Shown here piece by piece: positions 992-12,847 of a stretch of 64,000 nucleotides of DNA (position 1 is its first letter; the number at the start of each line of letters is the position of its first letter). This stretch comes from Bacteroidota bacterium. Its GTDB lineage: Bacteria > Bacteroidota > Bacteroidia > Cytophagales > ES-bin-26. The DNA lies in the NCBI GenBank assembly GCA_040385915.1, contig JAZKGK010000112.1, forward strand, positions 12,320 through 76,319, in the 5' to 3' direction. The position numbers and the translations under genes are program-made. The notes beneath the pieces are model-generated. The model was not told the origin of the DNA, made no database searches, and saw nothing but the letters and a program-made list of their open reading frames with translations.

Positions 992-1199
992 GAGATTCTA
1001 CCAGTATCGTCAGCTATGACTTGGGTTAATGCCAGGCGAAAAGTCTCCAACCCTACTATGTATCTATATACTTAGAACGGCATTTGGGTGGTGGCGTATT
1101 CGATGAAAATAACTTTTTCGTCGTTCAAGGCTTAAAATAAACATACGTGTATACCCTAACCCTAACACGACAACCCTAACATTCGACTGTTATGGGAAA

Positions 1200-1418
1200 C
1201 TAGTTGCCCTGGAATCCATATTTCTGCATTACTGGCAGCAGTTTATTGACTATCGCTGGCGTAAAGGTCATTTTGCCAAGGGCTATATTTTTCAGGTTGG
1301 GTAAGGGGATATTGCATTCGCGGGCGAAAGTATTCTTTGCCAGGGCTTCGGGCCCATTTGCAAGCTCGTTCTTATCGGGCAATGCGTCAAAAAACATTCT
1401 AAACTCAATATTAGTCAT
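1200..1418 (-). CDS. Hypothetical small protein (72 aa), coding status uncertain
   Basis: It is the only non-overlapped ORF in the 888-1701 spacer. I recognise no motif, and the antisense ORF 1204-1428 is equally long. Confidence 0.3.
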   Translation of the reverse strand: MTNIEFRMFFDALPDKNELANGPEALAKNTFARECNIPLPNLKNIALGKMTFTPAIVNKLLPVMQKYGFQGN

Positions 1419-1701
1419 ACAGGAATAGTTTTAATGTCTTTAAGCCAAAAACTGACTTTTCAGCCAAGCGGCTCTTGGCGCTTTCTAACATTAGTACTAT
1501 TTGTATCACAATAGGTAAATGCTCTATTCCAAATATTTATCGCACCTGTATCTATTACATTTTATTTTTCCCTCTCCATTACACTTCTACTCAATTTTAT
1601 CATGCTGCTCCTTACGTGCTAAAGCCATACAGTAGGCTAGGCAAATTATAAGGCCATGGGAAATGTCATAATGGTTCTATAATAACTCAAGCCAATTCAA
1701 C

Positions 1702-1986
1702 TTACTCCTTCTTCCCAAACCAGGCAATAAACTCATCCATTTTCTTCCGGTTTAGTTGCAGGTGGACGACCCTACCTATTTTACTGGCATCCACCAGTCC
1801 ACATTCCGTTAGCTGCTTGATATGGTGAGAAACCGAAGGCTGAGCCAGATTAGATAATTCTTGCGCCTGGGTGATGGTAACGCTGCCCTTGAGGAAGATT
1901 TCATGTAGAATAACTAAGCGATGACGATCTCCTAAGGCCTTCGCTACTTTCGCTATAAACTTTGCATTTTCCATTTTTTGAAGCAT
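1702..1986 (-). CDS. ArsR/SmtB-family winged-helix transcriptional regulator
   Basis: 94 aa. It carries LGDRHRLVILHEI followed by ITQAQELSNLAQPSVSHHIKQLTECGLV, the typical ArsR HTH with the SxHL/HHxKxL signature. Confidence 0.85.
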   Translation of the reverse strand: MLQKMENAKFIAKVAKALGDRHRLVILHEIFLKGSVTITQAQELSNLAQPSVSHHIKQLTECGLVDASKIGRVVHLQLNRKKMDEFIAWFGKKE

Positions 1987-2280
1987 TAAAGAGTTAAATT
2001 CTTATTATGGATTAGTCACGTAAGGTGATGTGCTCAGCAAAATGTCGAGCTTTCCTAGAAATATATCTCACTGTATATATGGGATTATTCGTAATAACAA
2101 CGACGAATAATTTGCCAAAAACACCTATAAACCGACAATGCAATAGAAACGTTACGTTTGAATATAGCTAAAAAAATAGTGGCATCAGGAATGCCTTGCG
2201 TTATGGATCCCGAACTTCTATTATGATTACCACAGAAGGTAAAACCTAGGACTCTGTCACCTTCATCCTTGGAGACGCTA

Positions 2281-2349
2281 GTGGTGCCACGACTCTAGCG
2301 AGGACTCTAGCGAGGACTCTAGCGAGGACGGCTATAGTCGTGGCACCAC
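2281..2349. repeat. 69-bp palindromic intergenic element, copy 1 (14-bp perfect terminal stem enclosing 3 x 12-nt tandem GACTCTAGCGAG)
   Basis: gtggtgccacgact ... agtcgtggcaccac are exact reverse complements. Three exact tandem 12-mers lie at 2291-2326. The element is 66/69 identical to 34274-34342. Confidence 0.85.
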
Positions 2350-4596: not shown

Positions 4597-6117
4597 ATGA
4601 AACCCTATTTGCTTGTTCTCTTTGCCCTGATCGTTGGAAATAGCAACCGATGTGTGGCTCAAACGCCCGCTTCTGAGCCCGAAAAACAACAAATACGCCA
4701 GCTATTGCGCACATACGAAAAAGATCTTCAACAGATGGCTGCGCCTCATATGCTTGCTGCCGAACGGAATGCCGGCAAACGTGAGCTGCTAACCGTGGTT
4801 GAAGACAAGGCCATTTGGGTAGCCAATGACCTGGATAGCCTGGCTGATTTTGCGCTCGTATCTATGCAAAAGTACGTGCAGGAATTATTACCAACACACT
4901 TTCCCTTGGGACTAAATACGAGCTTAGCGCTGGAAAAGCTCCAGTTTGGGATGGTGAAACGCGATAAGGTAAGGCATTACGATTACCTGGAAATCCGGGT
5001 TCCCAAGACCCTCACCTGGCAAACCCTCCAAAAAACCGACAGCAGCCAAGTAGATACAGTCTCAATGACTCGAACGGTGTCGCTCAGCTTCTTTATTCGC
5101 TTCAATCGCAGTATCTCTATTGAAAAATACAAAATAATGGCCATCAATCAGGCCGGACGTGCGCCCAAGCTGCTGCCTCTTCCTGAGTTGATCGCTTGGT
5201 GGACTGACTTGAGTGCCGATTGGAAAGCAGCCTTGCTGAAAAACTATCCAATGGAGGAATACCCGCGTGAAGACGAACTGGAAAACCTCCAGGGGATTGC
5301 CAAACTTTCCCTTGCCAAAACCCCGATTAAGGACGCTACACCACTAGCCAAATTCACCCAACTGAGGGAACTAGACTGCTCCCAAACGGCCATCGAAAAC
5401 CTACAACCACTGAGCAAGCTCACGTTGTTGGAAGACCTCAATCTTTCCAGAACCCAGATCAGCAGCCTAGCAGGCATCGATAGTCTGTTCAACCTGATTA
5501 AATTGAACGGAAGCTTTCTTAAGCTAAAGGATGTCGTTCCCATGGCTGGCCTGACGAAATTGGAAGAAGTTTACCTTACCGATAATGAGCTCACAGATCT
5601 GGCTCCCTTGACGGGCTTAACCCAGCTCAGAAAACTTAGCTTCAGCAATAATCTGGTCACTTCTCTTACGCCATTGGCCGCTTTGGTGAATATGGAAGAG
5701 CTTCGTTTTGGAAAAAACAAGGTCGACAACTTTGCCGTATTGTCGAATTTCCCCAACCTTATCATCCTGGATTGCTTCAGCTCGGGCTTAGACAGCGCCG
5801 AACCCTTGCGTAACCTGACTAAACTGGTCTATCTGAATTGTGGAGCCAATCCTATTCTCTCGCTTGACCCATTGGCCAATCATGTTTTTCTGTTGGAATT
5901 AAATGTGACCACCACCAAAATTGCCAGCCTTAATGCCTTGCGAAAGTTTAAGCTGCTGGAAATACTCGACTTTTCTAACACGACCGTAACAGAATTAGGC
6001 CCCGTACACGACCTGGATGGGATTCGGGTGCTGAAATGCCAGCTTACCAAAGTAGAAGTGCGGGATAAAGACCGTTTCAAGAAAAAACACCCGCGCTGCG
6101 AAATCACTTATTTTTAA
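4597..6117 (+). CDS. Secreted leucine-rich-repeat (internalin-like LRR) protein
   Basis: Signal peptide MKPYLLVLFALIVGNSNRCVAQ. The C-terminal half is about 12 tandem 22-residue LRRs, e.g. LxxLxxLDCSQTAIENLQPLSKLTLLEDLNLSRTQISSLAGI. Confidence 0.85.
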   Translation: MKPYLLVLFALIVGNSNRCVAQTPASEPEKQQIRQLLRTYEKDLQQMAAPHMLAAERNAGKRELLTVVEDKAIWVANDLDSLADFALVSMQKYVQELLPTHFPLGLNTSLALEKLQFGMVKRDKVRHYDYLEIRVPKTLTWQTLQKTDSSQVDTVSMTRTVSLSFFIRFNRSISIEKYKIMAINQAGRAPKLLPLPELIAWWTDLSADWKAALLKNYPMEEYPREDELENLQGIAKLSLAKTPIKDATPLAKFTQLRELDCSQTAIENLQPLSKLTLLEDLNLSRTQISSLAGIDSLFNLIKLNGSFLKLKDVVPMAGLTKLEEVYLTDNELTDLAPLTGLTQLRKLSFSNNLVTSLTPLAALVNMEELRFGKNKVDNFAVLSNFPNLIILDCFSSGLDSAEPLRNLTKLVYLNCGANPILSLDPLANHVFLLELNVTTTKIASLNALRKFKLLEILDFSNTTVTELGPVHDLDGIRVLKCQLTKVEVRDKDRFKKKHPRCEITYF

Positions 6118-6118
6118 A

Positions 6119-6151
6119 AAGGAAGGCTTCGCTTGGAGCGAAGCCTTCCTT
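6119..6151. terminator. Bidirectional rho-independent terminator between convergent genes
   Basis: aaggaaggcttcgc / ttgga / gcgaagccttcctt forms a 14-bp perfect stem. It is flanked by tttttaaaaa on the left and lies between the LRR gene stop (6117) and the YceI gene stop (6182). Confidence 0.75.
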
Positions 6152-7653: not shown

Positions 7654-7680
7654 ATGTAAATACATTATATGTTTATACAT
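7654..7680. promoter_or_regulatory. Two adjacent 12-bp palindromes ATGTAaaTACAT / ATGTttaTACAT upstream of the pirin gene (candidate MarR operator)
   Basis: Palindromes at 7654-7665 and 7669-7680 lie 23-50 nt upstream of the pirin ATG (7631). The same ATGTA..TACAT half-sites recur at 8197-8216 upstream of marR. Confidence 0.35.
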
Positions 7681-7724
7681 TTATTTTATTAAAAAAAACC
7701 GGAAAGTTTCTTTGACGTCCCGGA

Positions 7725-8174
7725 CTAGGTTCTCATTTTATCCAATAAGTCGCTTAATTGACCCGCTTCTTGTTCGGAAAGGTGAGAAAAAGTTTTATCT
7801 AAATCTTCCTGCAAGACATCAATTTCTTGTAATAAGTTCAATCCTTCTTGGGTAATTAATACATCTACTGCCCGGCGGTCGTTGGGACACACGTGCCGCA
7901 CCACCAACTTTTTGACCAACAACTTATCTACTAGCCGTGAAGCGTTAGACATTTTATCAATCATCCGCTCAATAATAAGGTTGACCGTGGCTGGTTTGGG
8001 ATGCTGGCCACGCAAAATCCTTAACACATTATACTGAGCCGCGGTAATTCCAAAGGGCTTTAACAGTTGAGACTGCCGCGCAGAAAGCCAACTATGGGTA
8101 TACATCAGATTGATAATCACCTTCTGATAGGGATTTTTAAAACTCTTCTGCTGAATATCCTGCTCAATTGACAT
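7725..8174 (-). CDS. MarR-family transcriptional regulator
   Basis: Winged-helix MarR core LSARQSQLLKPFGITAAQYNVLRIL...VDKLLVKKLVVRHVCPNDRRAVDVLITQEGL. The ORF track starts at a TTG (8198) that overlaps the upstream palindrome, so the ATG at 8174 (MSIEQD...) is more plausible. Confidence 0.85.
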   Translation of the reverse strand: MSIEQDIQQKSFKNPYQKVIINLMYTHSWLSARQSQLLKPFGITAAQYNVLRILRGQHPKPATVNLIIERMIDKMSNASRLVDKLLVKKLVVRHVCPNDRRAVDVLITQEGLNLLQEIDVLQEDLDKTFSHLSEQEAGQLSDLLDKMRT

Positions 8175-8196
8175 ATCTTCTACAAATAACCTCCGC

Positions 8197-8216
8197 AAAT
8201 GTATGTATATACATTT
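8197..8216. promoter_or_regulatory. 20-bp palindrome AAATGTAT-gtat-ATACATTT upstream of marR (candidate autoregulatory operator)
   Basis: 8-nt arms are exact reverse complements with a 4-nt spacer. It lies 23 nt upstream of the ATG at 8174. Confidence 0.4.
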
Positions 8217-8261
8217 AATGTTGCAACATTTTTAAAAATTATTATTCAGCTAAAATAAAAA

Positions 8262-8307
8262 TTTCACTGAAATGGCACGACATCGGGGGCCGATATAGCC
8301 AAATCGG
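8262..8307. repeat. 46-bp direct repeat, left copy (displaced duplicate of the Omp85-like gene 3' end including its stop codon)
   Basis: tttcactgaaatggcacgacatcgggggccgatatagccaaatcgg is identical 46/46 to 10902-10947. The flanking bases differ on both sides. Confidence 0.95.
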
Positions 8308-10092
8308 TCAATCGTAAACCGGGGAGGAAAACATTGCGATTTGCCTATTGCTTACAGGAGTCATTTCGCTTATAAAACTGCTCCACCCACTCAAAGTTAA
8401 ATGTAATTTATACTTTTCATTCAGTCTGTCAAGTGCTGTTTGGAGCTCCGACTTGTTGATAAGTTTGGCTAATGCTAAAAGGTCAATTCTCATTAAGACA
8501 TCTTTTGTAAACGTCCTTTTAGCATCAGCAAAAGTTATTGATTGCAAAAACTGAACTGTTTTATCAGCATTTAAAAGAATTAACGAGTAAACAGCAAATT
8601 CAATTCTATCAAAACCTATCAAATAGCAAGTGTCGTCAAGCATAACAGGTTTGTTGTCTTGAGGCAGAATTAATGTAAAATGAAACGTCTTGTAAAGACC
8701 TGAAATGGCAACTTTAAAAGGTTTAAATGAATAGTCTCCAATTCCAAATATTGAAAATAAAGGTTTGTTATTATATATACTGGATTTTCTTGCATCAAAA
8801 TTGGCTTGGTGCGCTGTTAAATATTGATACGTTTTTGGATATTTAGTTTTGATATATTGCGTTTCCTGTCCAACCTTTTTTTGTGTAACAATGGTGAATT
8901 TTCTTGTTTGGGTAATTACGGTATTTTTAAGGTCTGAACTTTTAAGAATACCGTAAACCAATGCATCCTCCAATATCACTTCTTCATTCAATCCATTTAC
9001 ATAATGTCCATTTTCTTTAATTAATTCCATTACGGAGGAACAGTCGTGTTTTAAACCTTGTCGCCAAATAAACGGGCACTCGCCGTCAATTTCTTTTGTA
9101 TGAATGTACGTATCCCTATTTGACACAAATTTTCCTCCTAACCAACCAAATTTCAAATAAGAAGTTTTGTTGTCATAAAAATTAAATTCTGTACAGTCAA
9201 AAGTTGGGCTTGCATTGAATTGACAATAAAACAAAGCGGCTTCAACAGATACATTAAATTCTTTTTTACTATCAATACATTGCTTCTCTATGGATGCAAT
9301 GCTATATTGATTTTTATTTTGGTCAAAGATAATATTTTTGATTACCGAATTTTTCACCAATAACAGTAAATGCCCATTCGTGTTTTGAAAAGCTTCAATC
9401 ATTATCAAGGTGATGAATTCAGCAATATCAAAGTTTCCTTTTCCGGTCATAGCGTCTAATCCGCTATGGTTTTTAAAATTAGTTTTCTTTGGAAGATTAG
9501 TTGAATTAAGGCTTCCCAATTTCGAGTTGGTTACCCAAGGGGGATTTCCAATGATTAGAATATCTTTTTTTGAATATTCTGTGGCTATTTGTTTAAAATC
9601 AAAGTCAAAAATATTGAAGTGACAAATTGAAATTTCGGGCTTATGATCATTTGGATTAGAGAGAAAAAAATCAATTACACTAAATTTAGTTTCCCAAACA
9701 TAGGGCTTGTAAATTTCTATACCAAAAATATTTTTGATGGTCTTAAAGTTTTGCAAGGCAGCAATAATAAAATTCCCTTTACCACAAGTTGGCTCAATTA
9801 CAATTTCAGGTGAAATGTTTTTTGAAGCCAAGTGCAAAGCAACTTTATTGGCTAAGTCAGTATTGGTTTGAAAGTCACCATATTCAGCTCGGTCAGGTTC
9901 TTCAATATTAAAATGCGTGTCAGAAAGAATTTCTTTAAGTATTTCTAATTCCTCATTAGTATCAAAAAAATGTATAATGCCGAAGGCAACATGCATTTCT
10001 TGATTTGCCTTTTCAAAAGAGGTAATCTTTTTCAGGTGATCATTTAAAAAAACCGAAACCTGATTAGTAATATTTGCTTCAAATACTTTCAT
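8308..10092 (-). CDS. Type II N6-adenine DNA methyltransferase (gamma class, Eco57I/TaqI-like)
   Basis: 594 aa. Motif I EPTCGKGNFIIAA precedes motif IV IIGNPPWV (NPPW), which is the gamma-class order. A long C-terminal target-recognition region follows. The start overlaps the upstream endonuclease stop by ATGA. Confidence 0.9.
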   Translation of the reverse strand: MKVFEANITNQVSVFLNDHLKKITSFEKANQEMHVAFGIIHFFDTNEELEILKEILSDTHFNIEEPDRAEYGDFQTNTDLANKVALHLASKNISPEIVIEPTCGKGNFIIAALQNFKTIKNIFGIEIYKPYVWETKFSVIDFFLSNPNDHKPEISICHFNIFDFDFKQIATEYSKKDILIIGNPPWVTNSKLGSLNSTNLPKKTNFKNHSGLDAMTGKGNFDIAEFITLIMIEAFQNTNGHLLLLVKNSVIKNIIFDQNKNQYSIASIEKQCIDSKKEFNVSVEAALFYCQFNASPTFDCTEFNFYDNKTSYLKFGWLGGKFVSNRDTYIHTKEIDGECPFIWRQGLKHDCSSVMELIKENGHYVNGLNEEVILEDALVYGILKSSDLKNTVITQTRKFTIVTQKKVGQETQYIKTKYPKTYQYLTAHQANFDARKSSIYNNKPLFSIFGIGDYSFKPFKVAISGLYKTFHFTLILPQDNKPVMLDDTCYLIGFDRIEFAVYSLILLNADKTVQFLQSITFADAKRTFTKDVLMRIDLLALAKLINKSELQTALDRLNEKYKLHLTLSGWSSFISEMTPVSNRQIAMFSSPVYD

Positions 10093-10766
10093 CCTTTCGG
10101 TTTGTTATAGCTAATGATTTTGGAAATGCCTGGAATATAGTCAACCAAGGCAACAATTCTTTGATATTGCAGTCGCCATTGTAATGCATTGGAAATGGTT
10201 AGATAACCTTGTTCGGGTGGTGTCTGTAAAATTTGTTCAGCTAATTTTGATAAGGTTAGTTCGTCTGCGGGTATATTTTTGTCTTGCAAATAAGCAATTA
10301 TGTCCGCTTCATTTGCAGCATCCTTAACCATTTCTCTCAAACGGAAAGTTGTTGTATAATCGGCAGTTCGTTCTTTTGAAACAAATGAACAGCTTACAAA
10401 GTTGAGTATGGCCGTTTGAGTGGTCTGATCGTCCGTTTTATCATAAACAAACACAAGTAAATTATAGCCAAGCCCAAAAATTTTTTGCTTTGCATCTTTA
10501 AAAGGGCAGGAAGATTGCGGCTGTTTAATTGAAGTAACTTTGATGTCAGTTAAAATATCTGCAGACGGTAAATCAATACCGCTTGCAGAGGAGCCAATTA
10601 TTAGCTGGTATTTTTCGCGTAAATGTTTTTGAAATTTTTGTTCAATGAGTGTTCCAACAGCTTTTCCATCAGTAACACCAAATAGTTCCTTATGTCTAAA
10701 TGTAGATTCTGCAACACAAAAATGTTGAGCTTCCTCTATAAGTTTTGGTATTGTTAAATTTTCCAT
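10089..10766 (-). CDS. Candidate type II restriction endonuclease (PD-(D/E)xK-like)
   Basis: 225 aa, immediately upstream of and translationally overlapped (ATGA, 10089-10092) with the methyltransferase. It has a candidate catalytic motif GIDLPSADILTDIKVTS (D...DxK). It shares the cassette's low GC. I cannot assign a family or specificity by eye. Confidence 0.6.
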   Translation of the reverse strand: MENLTIPKLIEEAQHFCVAESTFRHKELFGVTDGKAVGTLIEQKFQKHLREKYQLIIGSSASGIDLPSADILTDIKVTSIKQPQSSCPFKDAKQKIFGLGYNLLVFVYDKTDDQTTQTAILNFVSCSFVSKERTADYTTTFRLREMVKDAANEADIIAYLQDKNIPADELTLSKLAEQILQTPPEQGYLTISNALQWRLQYQRIVALVDYIPGISKIISYNKPKG

Positions 10767-10901
10767 AATCTCAAAATTACAATCTAAACCGCATCTTATT
10801 GTTGATTGGTTAGTTTTTTTGTCAGCCGTTGAATTAGGCTTTGCAAATCACTTTTTTATGTTATTTATACTCCTCTTCTAGTGAGTAAATTCAAGTTCAC
10901 T

Positions 10902-10947
10902 TTTCACTGAAATGGCACGACATCGGGGGCCGATATAGCCAAATCGG
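10902..10947. repeat. 46-bp direct repeat, right copy (functional 3' end of the Omp85-like gene)
   Basis: Identical to 8262-8307. It encodes ...DLAISAPDVVPFQ plus the TGA at 10904-10906. Confidence 0.95.
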
Positions 10948-12847
10948 ACAATTGCAGGCTGGGGAGGCCGGCAACATCGCCTCGGAACAGCGTGCGGTTT
11001 CCGGGAATATTGGGATAATAGCCAATTCGGAACTGGAAAGTATTGAAAGCTAAATGCTCATTTCTTATCCGAATGCCAACGCCATACCCTTGATAAAGCG
11101 CCTGATTGAACAAGGTGCCCTCTTTTCGCGCTACCAAGCCTAGATCAATGTTGGCAAAAAAAGCCGCCCGAAATCCAAGCAAGTTGCCTGGTGTAAAAAA
11201 AACTGTTTCCAGGTTAATAATCAGGCTTTCGGTACCACGCAAGGCATCTCTGGAAATGCCCCGAATACCGCTATTGTTACTGATGTCAATGCCTTCGTTA
11301 TAGAATCGGTTGATTCCCCGGCGATACCGGGCCGTAATAAACTGTCGTATTTTGAGCTTATGTTCACCCAGCAACGGGCTGAAGTATTTAACTCCTACGT
11401 CTAAAGCACCTTGCTCCCAGTGGCTATTCCTAAAAAAAGAACCCACATTCACATTGCCATACAAATAGCCTAAACGCGTAAAATATTGCGCATACACCCA
11501 GTTGATACCGCCGTATGTCCGTCTGCCCAGAAATTTCCTTTCTTCCACACCCACTGTTAGGTTGATAAGGCCACCATAGGGCACGTCTTCTGTCCGGCCA
11601 AAGCCATAAATATATACATCGCGAAAGTAATTACGGCGGGAAAAACCCACGCTGAAAAGCCCAGTGGTGCGCCCCAGGTACTGATTAGTATCGGGCTTGA
11701 TTTCAGGCATTTGGGCATAATCGGTATATATACCTCGGGCAGCCACCACCACCCGAGCGCTTTTGTTGAAGGCTTGGCTACCTGAAAAAAACCGAAAGGA
11801 TCGACCCAACCACAAATCCCCTAACTTATAGTCGACTGGTAAAGTGAAGTTGATGGTATCGGTAGGAAAAAGCAGCGGAACCAAACGTTGGTTCTGACTT
11901 ATTTCCAGTCCACCCGCATATTTGATAGTGGCAGCCAGAAAGGGTTTGCGTAGCCGAATTGCATAGCTATGGTTATCCCATTCATTGATATATTCTGCTC
12001 CTGCACTAATGTACGTCTTACCCACGTAAGGAATGGTGTACTGCCCCCGATAGCCCCATTGCTGGTTTCGTATTTGTTCATAAGACACCCCCACGCGTAA
12101 GTCATGCCCCAGGCCAAGCAGATTCTTGTCGTCAAGATTTAGGTTGGCCGATTGAAAGCCACCCATGCCACCATCTACCGAAATAGACCAAACATCTTGC
12201 GTGAGCACCAATACATCCACAGTATCTTTATCGTTGAGACGGGGCACCACGAAAATACGGGCATCGAGCAAGTTGGGCAATGCCGTACGAAGAATCCGTT
12301 CGTTGTTGCTCAGCACCTGATGGTCTACGGTACTGCCTTCGGCAAAAAGCAGGTAATTGTTCTTGATGATGTATTTTCGGGTATCTACATGAAGGCGGTT
12401 GCCTGTGTATTCGAACCAGTTTTGCGGAGGCCGAAGCGTATCATTCACCGAAGGACCAAACACATCTACCCGCTTCACTTCAATACGTCCGATAATTTTG
12501 CCATCATACCGTATGTTAGGATTCACTATTTTCTTAGCAGCTACCTTTGCTTCTTCATTCAGTTTGTCTACGGGCTGCGCTGGCTCTCGAAACAACCACT
12601 CGTACATGCCTCTCATTACTTTGGTTCTGGAGAAAAAGTCTTTGATACTCCGATAAAATTGATTGGTAGATTTGGTGCGGGTGCTGGTTGGGTTGCCCTT
12701 CAGAATATCGTTTTGATTGGCAATATCCTTGGCACGGATTTCATTCAAACGAACTGTATCGATTTGTTGCGCCATAGCAATACTAGAAGGCAATAAAAGC
12801 CCTATGATTACCCAAATTATGCCAATTGCCAGATGTTTTACCCTCAA
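10904..12847 (-). CDS. Omp85/BamA-family outer-membrane protein (POTRA-like N-terminal region plus beta-barrel)
   Basis: 647 aa. Signal peptide ...LLLPSSIAMAQQ. POTRA-like segment GRIEVKRVDVFGPSV...ERILRTALPNLLDARIFVVP...VDVLVLTQDVWS. The rest is a long region of alternating aromatic/glycine beta-strands (YGFGRTEDVPYGG, GYGVGIRIRN). Confidence 0.55.
   Translation of the reverse strand: MRVKHLAIGIIWVIIGLLLPSSIAMAQQIDTVRLNEIRAKDIANQNDILKGNPTSTRTKSTNQFYRSIKDFFSRTKVMRGMYEWLFREPAQPVDKLNEEAKVAAKKIVNPNIRYDGKIIGRIEVKRVDVFGPSVNDTLRPPQNWFEYTGNRLHVDTRKYIIKNNYLLFAEGSTVDHQVLSNNERILRTALPNLLDARIFVVPRLNDKDTVDVLVLTQDVWSISVDGGMGGFQSANLNLDDKNLLGLGHDLRVGVSYEQIRNQQWGYRGQYTIPYVGKTYISAGAEYINEWDNHSYAIRLRKPFLAATIKYAGGLEISQNQRLVPLLFPTDTINFTLPVDYKLGDLWLGRSFRFFSGSQAFNKSARVVVAARGIYTDYAQMPEIKPDTNQYLGRTTGLFSVGFSRRNYFRDVYIYGFGRTEDVPYGGLINLTVGVEERKFLGRRTYGGINWVYAQYFTRLGYLYGNVNVGSFFRNSHWEQGALDVGVKYFSPLLGEHKLKIRQFITARYRRGINRFYNEGIDISNNSGIRGISRDALRGTESLIINLETVFFTPGNLLGFRAAFFANIDLGLVARKEGTLFNQALYQGYGVGIRIRNEHLAFNTFQFRIGYYPNIPGNRTLFRGDVAGLPSLQLSDLAISAPDVVPFQ

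Follow-up and report, generated by a model that had tools for sequence, protein, structure and literature searches.

An NspV-family restriction-modification unit between two copies of the end of an outer-membrane protein gene in a Cytophagales-like Bacteroidota genome

We analysed a 64-kb stretch of DNA (hereafter the window) from a Cytophagales-like member of the Bacteroidota that is known from a metagenome-assembled genome (MAG). The window carries a restriction-modification (R-M) unit, composed of a gene for a type II restriction endonuclease (R) and a gene for a DNA methyltransferase (M), which is bracketed by a direct repeat of the last codons of a neighbouring outer-membrane protein gene. 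All the genes of the region lie on the minus strand. The features of the locus, ordered by their coordinates, are the following:

7725..8198, minus strand: marR-family regulator gene (157 amino acids; Pfam MarR_2 and MarR), the original downstream neighbour of the outer-membrane gene, adjacent to it in the relatives L003, L004 and L005
8199..8261, minus strand: native intergenic region between the outer-membrane gene and marR, aligning with L003 and L005 and including the conserved palindrome-containing sequence ATGTATATACAT
8262..8327, minus strand: repeat copy 2, a displaced pseudo-fragment of the end of the outer-membrane gene, with 8262-8307 identical to copy 1
8308..10092, minus strand: M, predicted gamma-type N6-adenine DNA methyltransferase gene (594 amino acids; CGKGNF followed by NPPW; PADLOC MTase_II)
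8329..10782, minus strand: conserved R-M core of 2,454 bp, with 68-82% nucleotide identity to related loci from many taxa
10089..10766, minus strand: R, NspV-family type II restriction endonuclease gene (225 amino acids; NF052465, PF27258, PDLC03454)
10783..10901, minus strand: AT-rich leader of 119 nt between repeat copy 1 and the conserved R-M core
10902..10967, minus strand: repeat copy 1, functional, comprising the last 21 codons of the outer-membrane gene, its TGA and 2 nt, with a perfect match to copy 2 over the outer 46 nt (10902-10947)
10904..12847, minus strand: resident outer-membrane protein gene, intact (647 amino acids by the longest open reading frame (ORF), 623 in the NCBI call), ending in ...DLAISAPDVVPFQ*

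The repeat and its target gene

A repeat search of the window recovered the perfect match of 46 out of 46 nt between positions 8262-8307 and 10902-10947 that had been described in the initial annotation of this DNA, and words of this 46-mer down to 16 nt occur at just these two positions, on either strand. The identity had been described as ending there on both sides. This is correct for the perfect match, but the repeat itself extends to 66 nt, since the adjoining segments 8308-8327 and 10948-10967 agree in register at 14 of 20 positions (binomial P ~3e-5). Similarity ends beyond this limit, with four to seven matches in each of the following 20-nt blocks. Overall, the two copies are identical at 60 of 66 positions, and the six mismatches all fall within the inner 20 nt, on the side of the insert (P ~4e-4 for random placement). 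The right copy of the 46-mer corresponds to the last 14 codons, the TGA (10904-10906) and 2 nt of the 647-amino acid ORF located at 10904-12847 on the minus strand, so that the count of 14 codons given initially stands for the perfect match and becomes 21 codons over the 66 nt.

The six substitutions in the inner part of the displaced copy (8308-8327) are five transitions and one transversion, and one of them creates the stop codon of M. Read in the frame of the outer-membrane gene, the displaced copy encodes LPGLRLTDLAISAPDVVPFQ and the resident gene LPSLQLSDLAISAPDVVPFQ. In the inner part, LPGLRLTD of the displaced copy thus corresponds to LPSLQLSD of the resident gene, with one leucine codon maintained through two substitutions and conservative exchanges between Ser and Gly, Gln and Arg, and Ser and Thr. 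The relatives L003, L004 and L005 encode PSLRL(S/T)D at this place, i.e., the displaced copy keeps the Arg found in all of them where the resident gene has Gln. The displaced copy is a mosaic, with no difference over 46 nt followed by six over 20 nt (the sequence at the joint is CCTCCCCGGTTTACGATTGACCGATTTGG). Two readings of this mosaic can be proposed: the outer 46 nt may have been homogenised by later gene conversion, or the inner 20 nt may represent another allele brought with the R-M unit, with a homologous exchange within the 46-mer.

The outer-membrane gene terminates in ...PFQ*, which aligns with the ...PFR* or ...PFRW* of its relatives, indicating from the common position of the C-terminus that the gene is intact. 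Its product is 100% identical to protein V4714_08805 of a Bacteroidota MAG, and the nearest orthologues are 60-68% identical. The gene had been called Omp85-like; searches of Pfam and NCBIfam with the protein gave, at E ≤ 0.01, nothing but one weak and spurious match, and what remains of that name are the labels ‘BamA/TamA family’ and ‘surface antigen D15’ that the sources attach to homologues of 39-49% identity.

In the long contigs L003, L004 and L005, the orthologue of the outer-membrane gene is directly followed by marR, located 140-200 nt downstream, and no second copy of the end of the outer-membrane gene is present within the 1.2 kb downstream. This is the arrangement that the initial annotation had proposed for an empty site, seen here in distant relatives; the opposite arrangement, two copies of the gene end in a relative devoid of the R-M genes, occurs in none of the three. 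The neighbourhood is also shared: genes encoding YceI, a short-chain dehydrogenase and a TPR histidine kinase are present in all three relatives, and those for Maf and DUF1015 in some of them. Conversely, the genes flanking the insert in the window (YceI, marR, the outer-membrane gene, an acetyltransferase, DUF1015 and Maf) also occur around the locus in two or all three of the relatives, and the pirin gene in L003 only. When GTDB species genomes were scanned with the outer-membrane protein, the sole match was a Bacteroidales relative at 31% identity, which could not serve as an empty site.

A known R-M pair with a chimeric methyltransferase end

The DNA between the repeat copies (2,574-2,594 bp) carries only the two ORFs, R and M, which overlap by ATGA at 10089-10092, as annotated initially. 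Its AT-richness, first noticed from spot counts, is confirmed by a G+C content of 0.329 in 8308-10901 versus 0.467 in the remaining window. Likewise, the absence of integrase, transposase and terminal inverted repeats holds: neither the ORF list nor Pfam identified a transposase or integrase in the insert and its neighbourhood, and the repeat search detected no inverted repeat joining the ends of the insert. No tRNA gene was found near the insert and no terminator in the region. A scan for sigma-70 promoters, which does not cover Bacteroidota promoters, stayed at chance level.

The R protein matches the NCBIfam model NF052465 (‘type II restriction-modification system restriction endonuclease’) with 330.9 bits for a cut-off of 290, over residues 4-214 of 225; it also has a precomputed match to the Pfam family PF27258 (‘NspV’) and matches PADLOC REase_II PDLC03454 over its full length (280 bits). 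The initial annotation had considered that the endonuclease family and its site could not be named and that the pair might be new, a view that these assignments do not support. Its proposal of a PD-(D/E)XK-like nuclease is consistent with a candidate motif, D65...D74-I-K76, which is present in R and invariant in 26 homologues, and it is from this motif that R can be considered a putative PD-(D/E)XK enzyme. An AlphaFold model built from an alignment of 26 sequences with 85-90% identity (pLDDT 51, pTM 0.43) was too poor for a fold search, and sequence searches of the PDB returned no relative of R or M. The M protein matches PADLOC MTase_II PDLC03310 with 441 bits, and its N-terminus shows weak matches to TIGR02987 and MmeI_Mtase. 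Its translation contains a motif-I-like EPTCGKGNF, then IIGNPPWV, then about 400 residues, which corresponds to the gamma-class arrangement and agrees with the gamma-class NPPW N6-adenine methyltransferase annotated initially.

NspV recognises TTCGAA (PMC2779907), and this is probably also the site of the R and M proteins studied here, as suggested by the family name. The pair resembles the NspV/TTCGAA type IIP systems in the full-length match of R above a curated cut-off and in the adjacent gamma-type N6-adenine methyltransferase, but the window shows no marked avoidance of TTCGAA, and the site is here taken from the name of the family.

Homologue searches retrieved at least 8000 candidates each for R and M, and the best 120 of these are 80-90% identical to the window proteins. 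Their source names include Chitinophagales, Sphingobacteriales, Flavobacteriaceae, Bacteroidales, Ignavibacteriaceae and Candidatus Nomurabacteria. Other homologues of R, at 49-59% identity, are encoded by plasmids of Nostoc, Lactococcus, Lactiplantibacillus, Aeromonas and Klebsiella (about 55% for the Nostoc plasmids). Judged by these sequence relationships, the unit is a known, very common and horizontally spread NspV-family pair; the named family and the close relatives in many taxa thus speak against the idea of a new enzyme pair. The closest homologues, P0253 (90% identity for R) and P0122 (84% for M), were rejected as donors: they occur in unrelated contexts, with neither a fragment of the outer-membrane gene nor a flanking repeat.

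The limits of the insert were defined by BLASTN comparison of the cassette with about 100 related loci. Only window positions 10782-8329 ever align, and in all loci the homology starts at cassette coordinates 268-330, corresponding to window positions 10783-10721. The conserved core runs from about 16 nt before the start codon of R to 6 nt short of the natural end of M, and the 119-nt leader (10783-10901) has no counterpart upstream of R in these loci. The boundary of the cassette on the side of M is therefore at about 8328/8329, inside the last codons of M, and not at the repeat edge (8307/8308) where it had been placed initially.

This boundary leaves M with a chimeric end. Homologues of M have 589-590 amino acids and end in ...QMAMFA*; in 16 loci that we inspected base by base, the end of the gene reads ...CAAATGGCAATGTTTGCATAG (QMAMFA*) or a close variant of it. 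The M protein of the window ends in ...QIAMF followed by SSPVYD*: the natural ...ATGTTTGCATAG end is cut after ATGTTT (position 8329), and the sequence then continues with TCCTCCCCGGTTTACGATTGA. As the homology stops after ATGTTT, the cassette has lost the last codon and the stop codon of M. DNA that stems from the outer-membrane gene (8308-8328) supplies the last six codons of M (SSPVYD) and its TGA; the TGA lies at 8310-8308, where the resident copy has TGT (a T-to-A change), and with an unmutated copy of the repeat the tail would have 29 residues. By comparison of these sequences, M is fused to the displaced fragment and has borrowed its stop codon from duplicated host DNA. This fusion indicates that the repeat arose with the insertion.

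The end of the incoming DNA is thus not a fixed one, which favours illegitimate or repair-type joining over a hidden site-specific system; the loss of the stop codon of M and its replacement by a host-derived one argue in the same direction.

Relatives of the unit in a second duplication and in integron-type cassettes

A scan of metagenome contigs with R as the query yielded 80 loci, of which 56 had at least 100 nt on both sides; direct similarity between the two flanks was detected in 15. The only clear second, independent target duplication among them is that of L052, a 504-kb contig where a duplication of 172 nt with 95% identity between its copies (5773-5944 and 8586-8757) flanks the R-M pair. 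The duplicated segment corresponds to 6 nt upstream plus the first 55 codons of a gene for the GTPase RsgA (TIGR00157, 172 bits for a cut-off of 100); the complete rsgA gene is located downstream of the insert and its 5′ fragment upstream. The cassette ends at other points than in the window, with a leader of about 45 nt and a trailer of about 130 nt. Comparison of the two loci indicates that the length of the duplication is variable (66 nt versus 172 nt) and that the target gene remains intact in both. The ragged, locus-specific ends of the inserts are those of neither a transposon nor a site-specific cassette; the marks of a transposon or insertion sequence (IS), namely terminal inverted repeats, a transposase and a duplication of constant length, are lacking. 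The flank similarities of L047, L024, L032, L058, L063, L075 and L083 were also considered as target duplications and rejected, as they correspond to the attC-like element described below or to other intergenic repeats.

In 26 of the 80 metagenome loci, M is followed after 25-50 nt by a conserved attC-like element of about 128 nt, always on the strand of the R-M genes. The element is also present after M in L094-L105, and recurs before R, about 90-260 nt upstream of the conserved core, often in arrays of three to seven copies. Its consensus, (A/C)TAACA-GCGGTTTGGCG...GGCGGG...CCGCCAC...CGCCAAGCCGC-AAA(A/C)CGTTA, has TAAC...GTTA ends. A three-helix hairpin drawn up by hand and assessed on 22 copies is 85% paired versus 33-40% when the partners are slid; compensatory changes are present in 17 of its 22 pairs, and the observed values exceed those of all 500 shuffles on every measure. 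Copies were located as follows:

L028: 3519-3644, 5767-5893, 8461-8588 and 11234-11315
L095: seven copies between 2587 and 10585
other loci with the element: L021, L022, L024, L031-L035, L047, L057-L061, L067, L068, L082, L094 and L096-L105

Within these arrays, gene units of the same orientation, among them close homologues of the R-M pair of the window, are separated by the element. It has the look of an attC family belonging to a chromosomal integron or attC cluster of Bacteroidota in which most cassettes are defence genes. Defence systems have already been described as cassettes of sedentary chromosomal integrons, termed ‘biobanks’ (bioRxiv 10.1101/2024.07.02.601686). The resemblance lies in the close homologues of the R-M pair found beside defence genes in co-oriented arrays with 128-nt TAAC...GTTA hairpins, whereas the copy in the window has neither an attC-like site nor an array, and a long target duplication instead.

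At least seven different arrays contain an identical R protein of 227 amino acids, P0324, and have the attC-like element 29 nt after M, beside type I R-M, OLD-TOPRIM, GmrSD, Abi_2 and other defence genes. The loci concerned (L095-L104) carry apparently the same attC-like site (identical profile score in eight of the ten loci) in at least seven neighbourhoods and come from different samples and assemblies, indicating very recent cassette shuffling. In L094, a tyrosine recombinase of 410 amino acids is encoded at 1056-2288 (minus strand), divergently from the cassette array and with an IS21 element in between. It is XerA- or integron-integrase-like, with an IS91-like (Y2_Tnp) C-terminal part, and scores below the NCBIfam cut-offs (TIGR02249, 136.6 versus 265; NF040815, 176 versus 220), for which reason we call these loci integron-type and not integrons.

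A profile of the attC-like element searched against the window (nhmmer, filters off) gave a best E-value of 2.1 in 7700-11300 and of 1.6 in the whole window, i.e., no element is present, which argues that the insertion at this locus was not mediated by attC. We also considered whether the 119-nt leader resembles the central part of the element, and rejected this as unsupported.

Many of the Logan contigs carrying homologues of M or R are about 2.6-2.7 kb long, and the R-M pair very often forms a unitig of its own, about 2.65 kb in length, pointing to assembly graphs that in many samples branch at its flanks owing to repeats or to several contexts. Two R-M contigs have matching termini, L019 (3,577 bp; 95 nt at 99% identity) and L024 (3,916 bp; 33 nt at 100% identity), and may correspond to circular molecules or to assembly overlaps.

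Mode of insertion

We consider that foreign R-M DNA was inserted at this locus independently of any recombinase, with duplication of 66 nt of the target, and give this reading a probability of about 0.8. It retains three proposals of the initial annotation: that the unit was acquired horizontally, in agreement with its foreign G+C content and the empty sites of L003, L004 and L005; that it landed exactly after the outer-membrane gene and preserved its reading frame, the gene being kept intact by its duplicated end; and that the mechanism required no element-encoded recombinase.

In such a scenario, a 2.45-kb NspV-family module with its 119-nt leader would have entered by illegitimate recombination between the stop codon of the outer-membrane gene and the promoter region of marR. 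The final 66 nt of the target, made up of 21 codons plus the stop codon and 2 nt, would have been doubled in the course of the insertion, such that the upstream copy keeps the outer-membrane gene whole and the downstream copy becomes a dead fragment. The incoming DNA would have been broken 6 nt before the stop codon of M, so that the M reading frame now continues for six codons in the fragment, up to a TGA created by a T-to-A change. The DNA may have been joined through staggered breaks that were filled in, through repair linked to replication, or through one crossover with a circle on which a piece of the outer-membrane gene was present. Considering the cassettes described above, the simplest reading is that a fragment of an integron-type cassette, broken inside M and devoid of attC, was joined into the chromosome. 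Once resident, the pair would serve the usual functions of a type IIP system, defence and addiction. From its family membership, M would methylate adenine in the recognition site, probably TTCGAA, and R would cut unmethylated sites, with translation coupled by the R-then-M order and the ATGA overlap. Recombination between the repeats could delete or amplify the unit, its loss being penalised by post-segregational cutting.

Nobusato and co-workers reportedly described, in 2000, the insertion of an R-M unit with a long target duplication in Helicobacter pylori. The initial annotation had referred to this mode of insertion as one known from comparative genomics of Helicobacter; the mode is indeed known, but it has been described well beyond this genus. 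Passages of the survey of Furuta, Abe and Kobayashi (2010; PMC2853133) list cases of ‘insertion with long and variable target duplication’ among R-M systems of types I-IV from several phyla, including two Haemophilus influenzae cases with 46-bp repeats that overlap the 3′ ends of genes by 15 bp and 2 bp. The properties by which these passages recognise such insertions are all found in our locus: R and M within the insert, an insert shorter than 20 kb, a direct repeat longer than 30 bp (with only two copies in the window) and no mobility genes. A single copy at the uninterrupted site is seen in L003, L004 and L005, which are different species and are not comparable at the nucleotide level. The likeness extends to an insert composed of R and M alone, to the duplication of a unique host sequence, to an insert G+C content below that of the host and to the overlap of the repeat with the 3′ end of a gene. 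The locus differs from the cases treated in these passages in that its host phylum, the Bacteroidota (Cytophagales-like), is not among the taxa they concern, in that it was compared with distant relatives and not with strains of one species, in that the displaced copy is a mosaic and the source of the methyltransferase stop codon, and in that the R-M family is also found as an integron-type cassette.

The locus is thus a clean new example of an already described insertion mode, and represents neither a new enzyme nor a new mechanism; there is no sign of a new enzyme activity or of a new class of element. What it adds are junctions defined at the base level, the chimeric methyltransferase end, the mosaic repeat and the link to integron-type cassettes. 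A single R-M family occurs here in two contexts, bracketed by long duplications (in the window and in L052) and as many attC-bearing cassettes in arrays of defence genes. This makes the NspV-type family a convenient system for studying how R-M modules exit integron arrays and settle at ordinary chromosomal sites.

Several observations weigh against the insertion scenario. Simple duplication followed by decay accounts neither for the clustering of the six differences in the inner 20 nt nor for the Arg kept in the displaced copy where the resident gene has Gln. The empty-site relatives are distant (60-68% protein identity) and were compared by gene order and C-terminal codons, not nucleotide for nucleotide, and no strain of the same species devoid of the insert was found. 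TTCGAA occurs 12 times in the window for 17.6 occurrences expected, which is unremarkable among the 64 palindromes; as a gauge of specificity or of the time elapsed since arrival, this count is uninformative. Finally, integration rests on the contig as assembled: the Logan unitig L002 (run SRR26324626, 2,654 bp) supports the observation independently, as it corresponds exactly to window positions 8278-10931, where a k=31 unitig between two copies of the 46-mer should begin and end, but such a unitig would look the same for an integrated unit as for an empty site accompanied by a 2,640-bp circle.

The alternative that survives best, which we nevertheless regard as unlikely, is a Campbell-type re-integration. 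The R-M unit would have taken the fragment of the outer-membrane gene in a related lineage, left as a 2.6-kb circle through recombination of the repeats on its two sides and re-entered by a single RecA-type crossover of the fragment it carried with the end of the resident gene; the 46 identical nucleotides would be the tract of exchange or conversion and the 20 diverged nucleotides beside M the donor allele. This scenario is nested within the insertion that we favour. It explains the mosaic copy best, i.e., the switch from 0/46 to 6/20 differences (clustering P ~4e-4) and the nature of these differences, which resemble the divergence of a working gene, with conservative changes, five transitions out of six and the Arg (LRL) of all three relatives in the displaced copy only. 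Furthermore, the joint between M and the fragment must pre-date or coincide with the loss of the M stop codon, and a circle would agree with the unitig graph. R-M units have been proposed to pass through a life cycle in which they insert, amplify and are released, the steps of release and reinvasion being so far without evidence in the passages concerned (PMC2853133). Against this scenario, a donor allele that differs by 30% over 20 nt and is identical over the adjacent 46 nt is improbable unless heteroduplex repair is assumed, relatives do not show any particular conservation of the 46-mer, and neither a donor allele nor a second genome with the same junction was found. The argument rests on seven codons, too few to prove selection, and merely shifts the original insertion and duplication to another lineage. 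We consider it more doubtful still that the mosaic repeat is the fossil of a ‘release and reinvasion’ step, in which a fragment of a host gene served as a homing arm into the orthologous site of another lineage. If true, and taken with the copies in integron-type cassettes, this would mean that one R-M family switches between integrase-dependent mobility and a recombinase-free mobility guided by homology.

It is very improbable that the insertion is an artefact of assembly, produced by a 2.6-kb R-M circle or a foreign contig threaded into the MAG contig through the shared 46-mer. The source is indeed a metagenome-assembled genome, and the Logan unitig breaks at both copies of the repeat, as it would for an empty site plus a circle. 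However, in any such molecule the 66 nt from the outer-membrane gene must already be joined in frame to M, so that recombination with this gene would have happened regardless. Moreover, assemblers using k > 46 distinguish the two arrangements, and the NCBI record has the three genes consecutive (V4714_08795 to V4714_08805).

We give hardly any credit to the possibility that the R-M pair is ancestral at the locus, or was inserted by chance between pre-existing repeats, and was then lost from the relatives by recombination between the repeats. A deletion between direct repeats would yield exactly the single-copy arrangement of the relatives, but the G+C content of the pair lies 14 points below that of the host, R-M proteins with 80-90% identity occur in different orders and phyla in unrelated contexts, three relatives of different lineages have neither the R-M genes nor a scar or second copy, and the fusion of M to the displaced fragment dates the repeat to the insertion. 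Placement of an attC-bearing cassette at a secondary site by an integron integrase is just as implausible: it would fit the 26 loci out of 80 and most P0324 loci in which an attC-like hairpin follows the pair, the arrays of up to seven such sites and the one locus with a divergent Xer/IntI-like recombinase upstream, but around the insert the best attC-like hit has an E-value of 2.1, the cassette is truncated inside M, upstream of the expected attC, integrase action does not duplicate 46-66 nt of target, and no integrase gene is present in the neighbourhood.

Two features of the flanking DNA can be mentioned in addition to the insert. The AT-rich palindrome sequences TATGTATATACATTTA and TATGTTTATACATTTA are present in window positions 8199-8240, upstream of marR, and 7660-7690, in front of the pirin gene. 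Both are probably MarR operator sites, and the former is conserved in L003 and L005. Further away, a perfect 15-bp inverted repeat with a 3-nt loop (AAGGAAGGCTTCGCT/AGCGAAGCCTTCCTT; 6119-6151), located between the convergent leucine-rich-repeat and YceI genes, is probably a bidirectional terminator.

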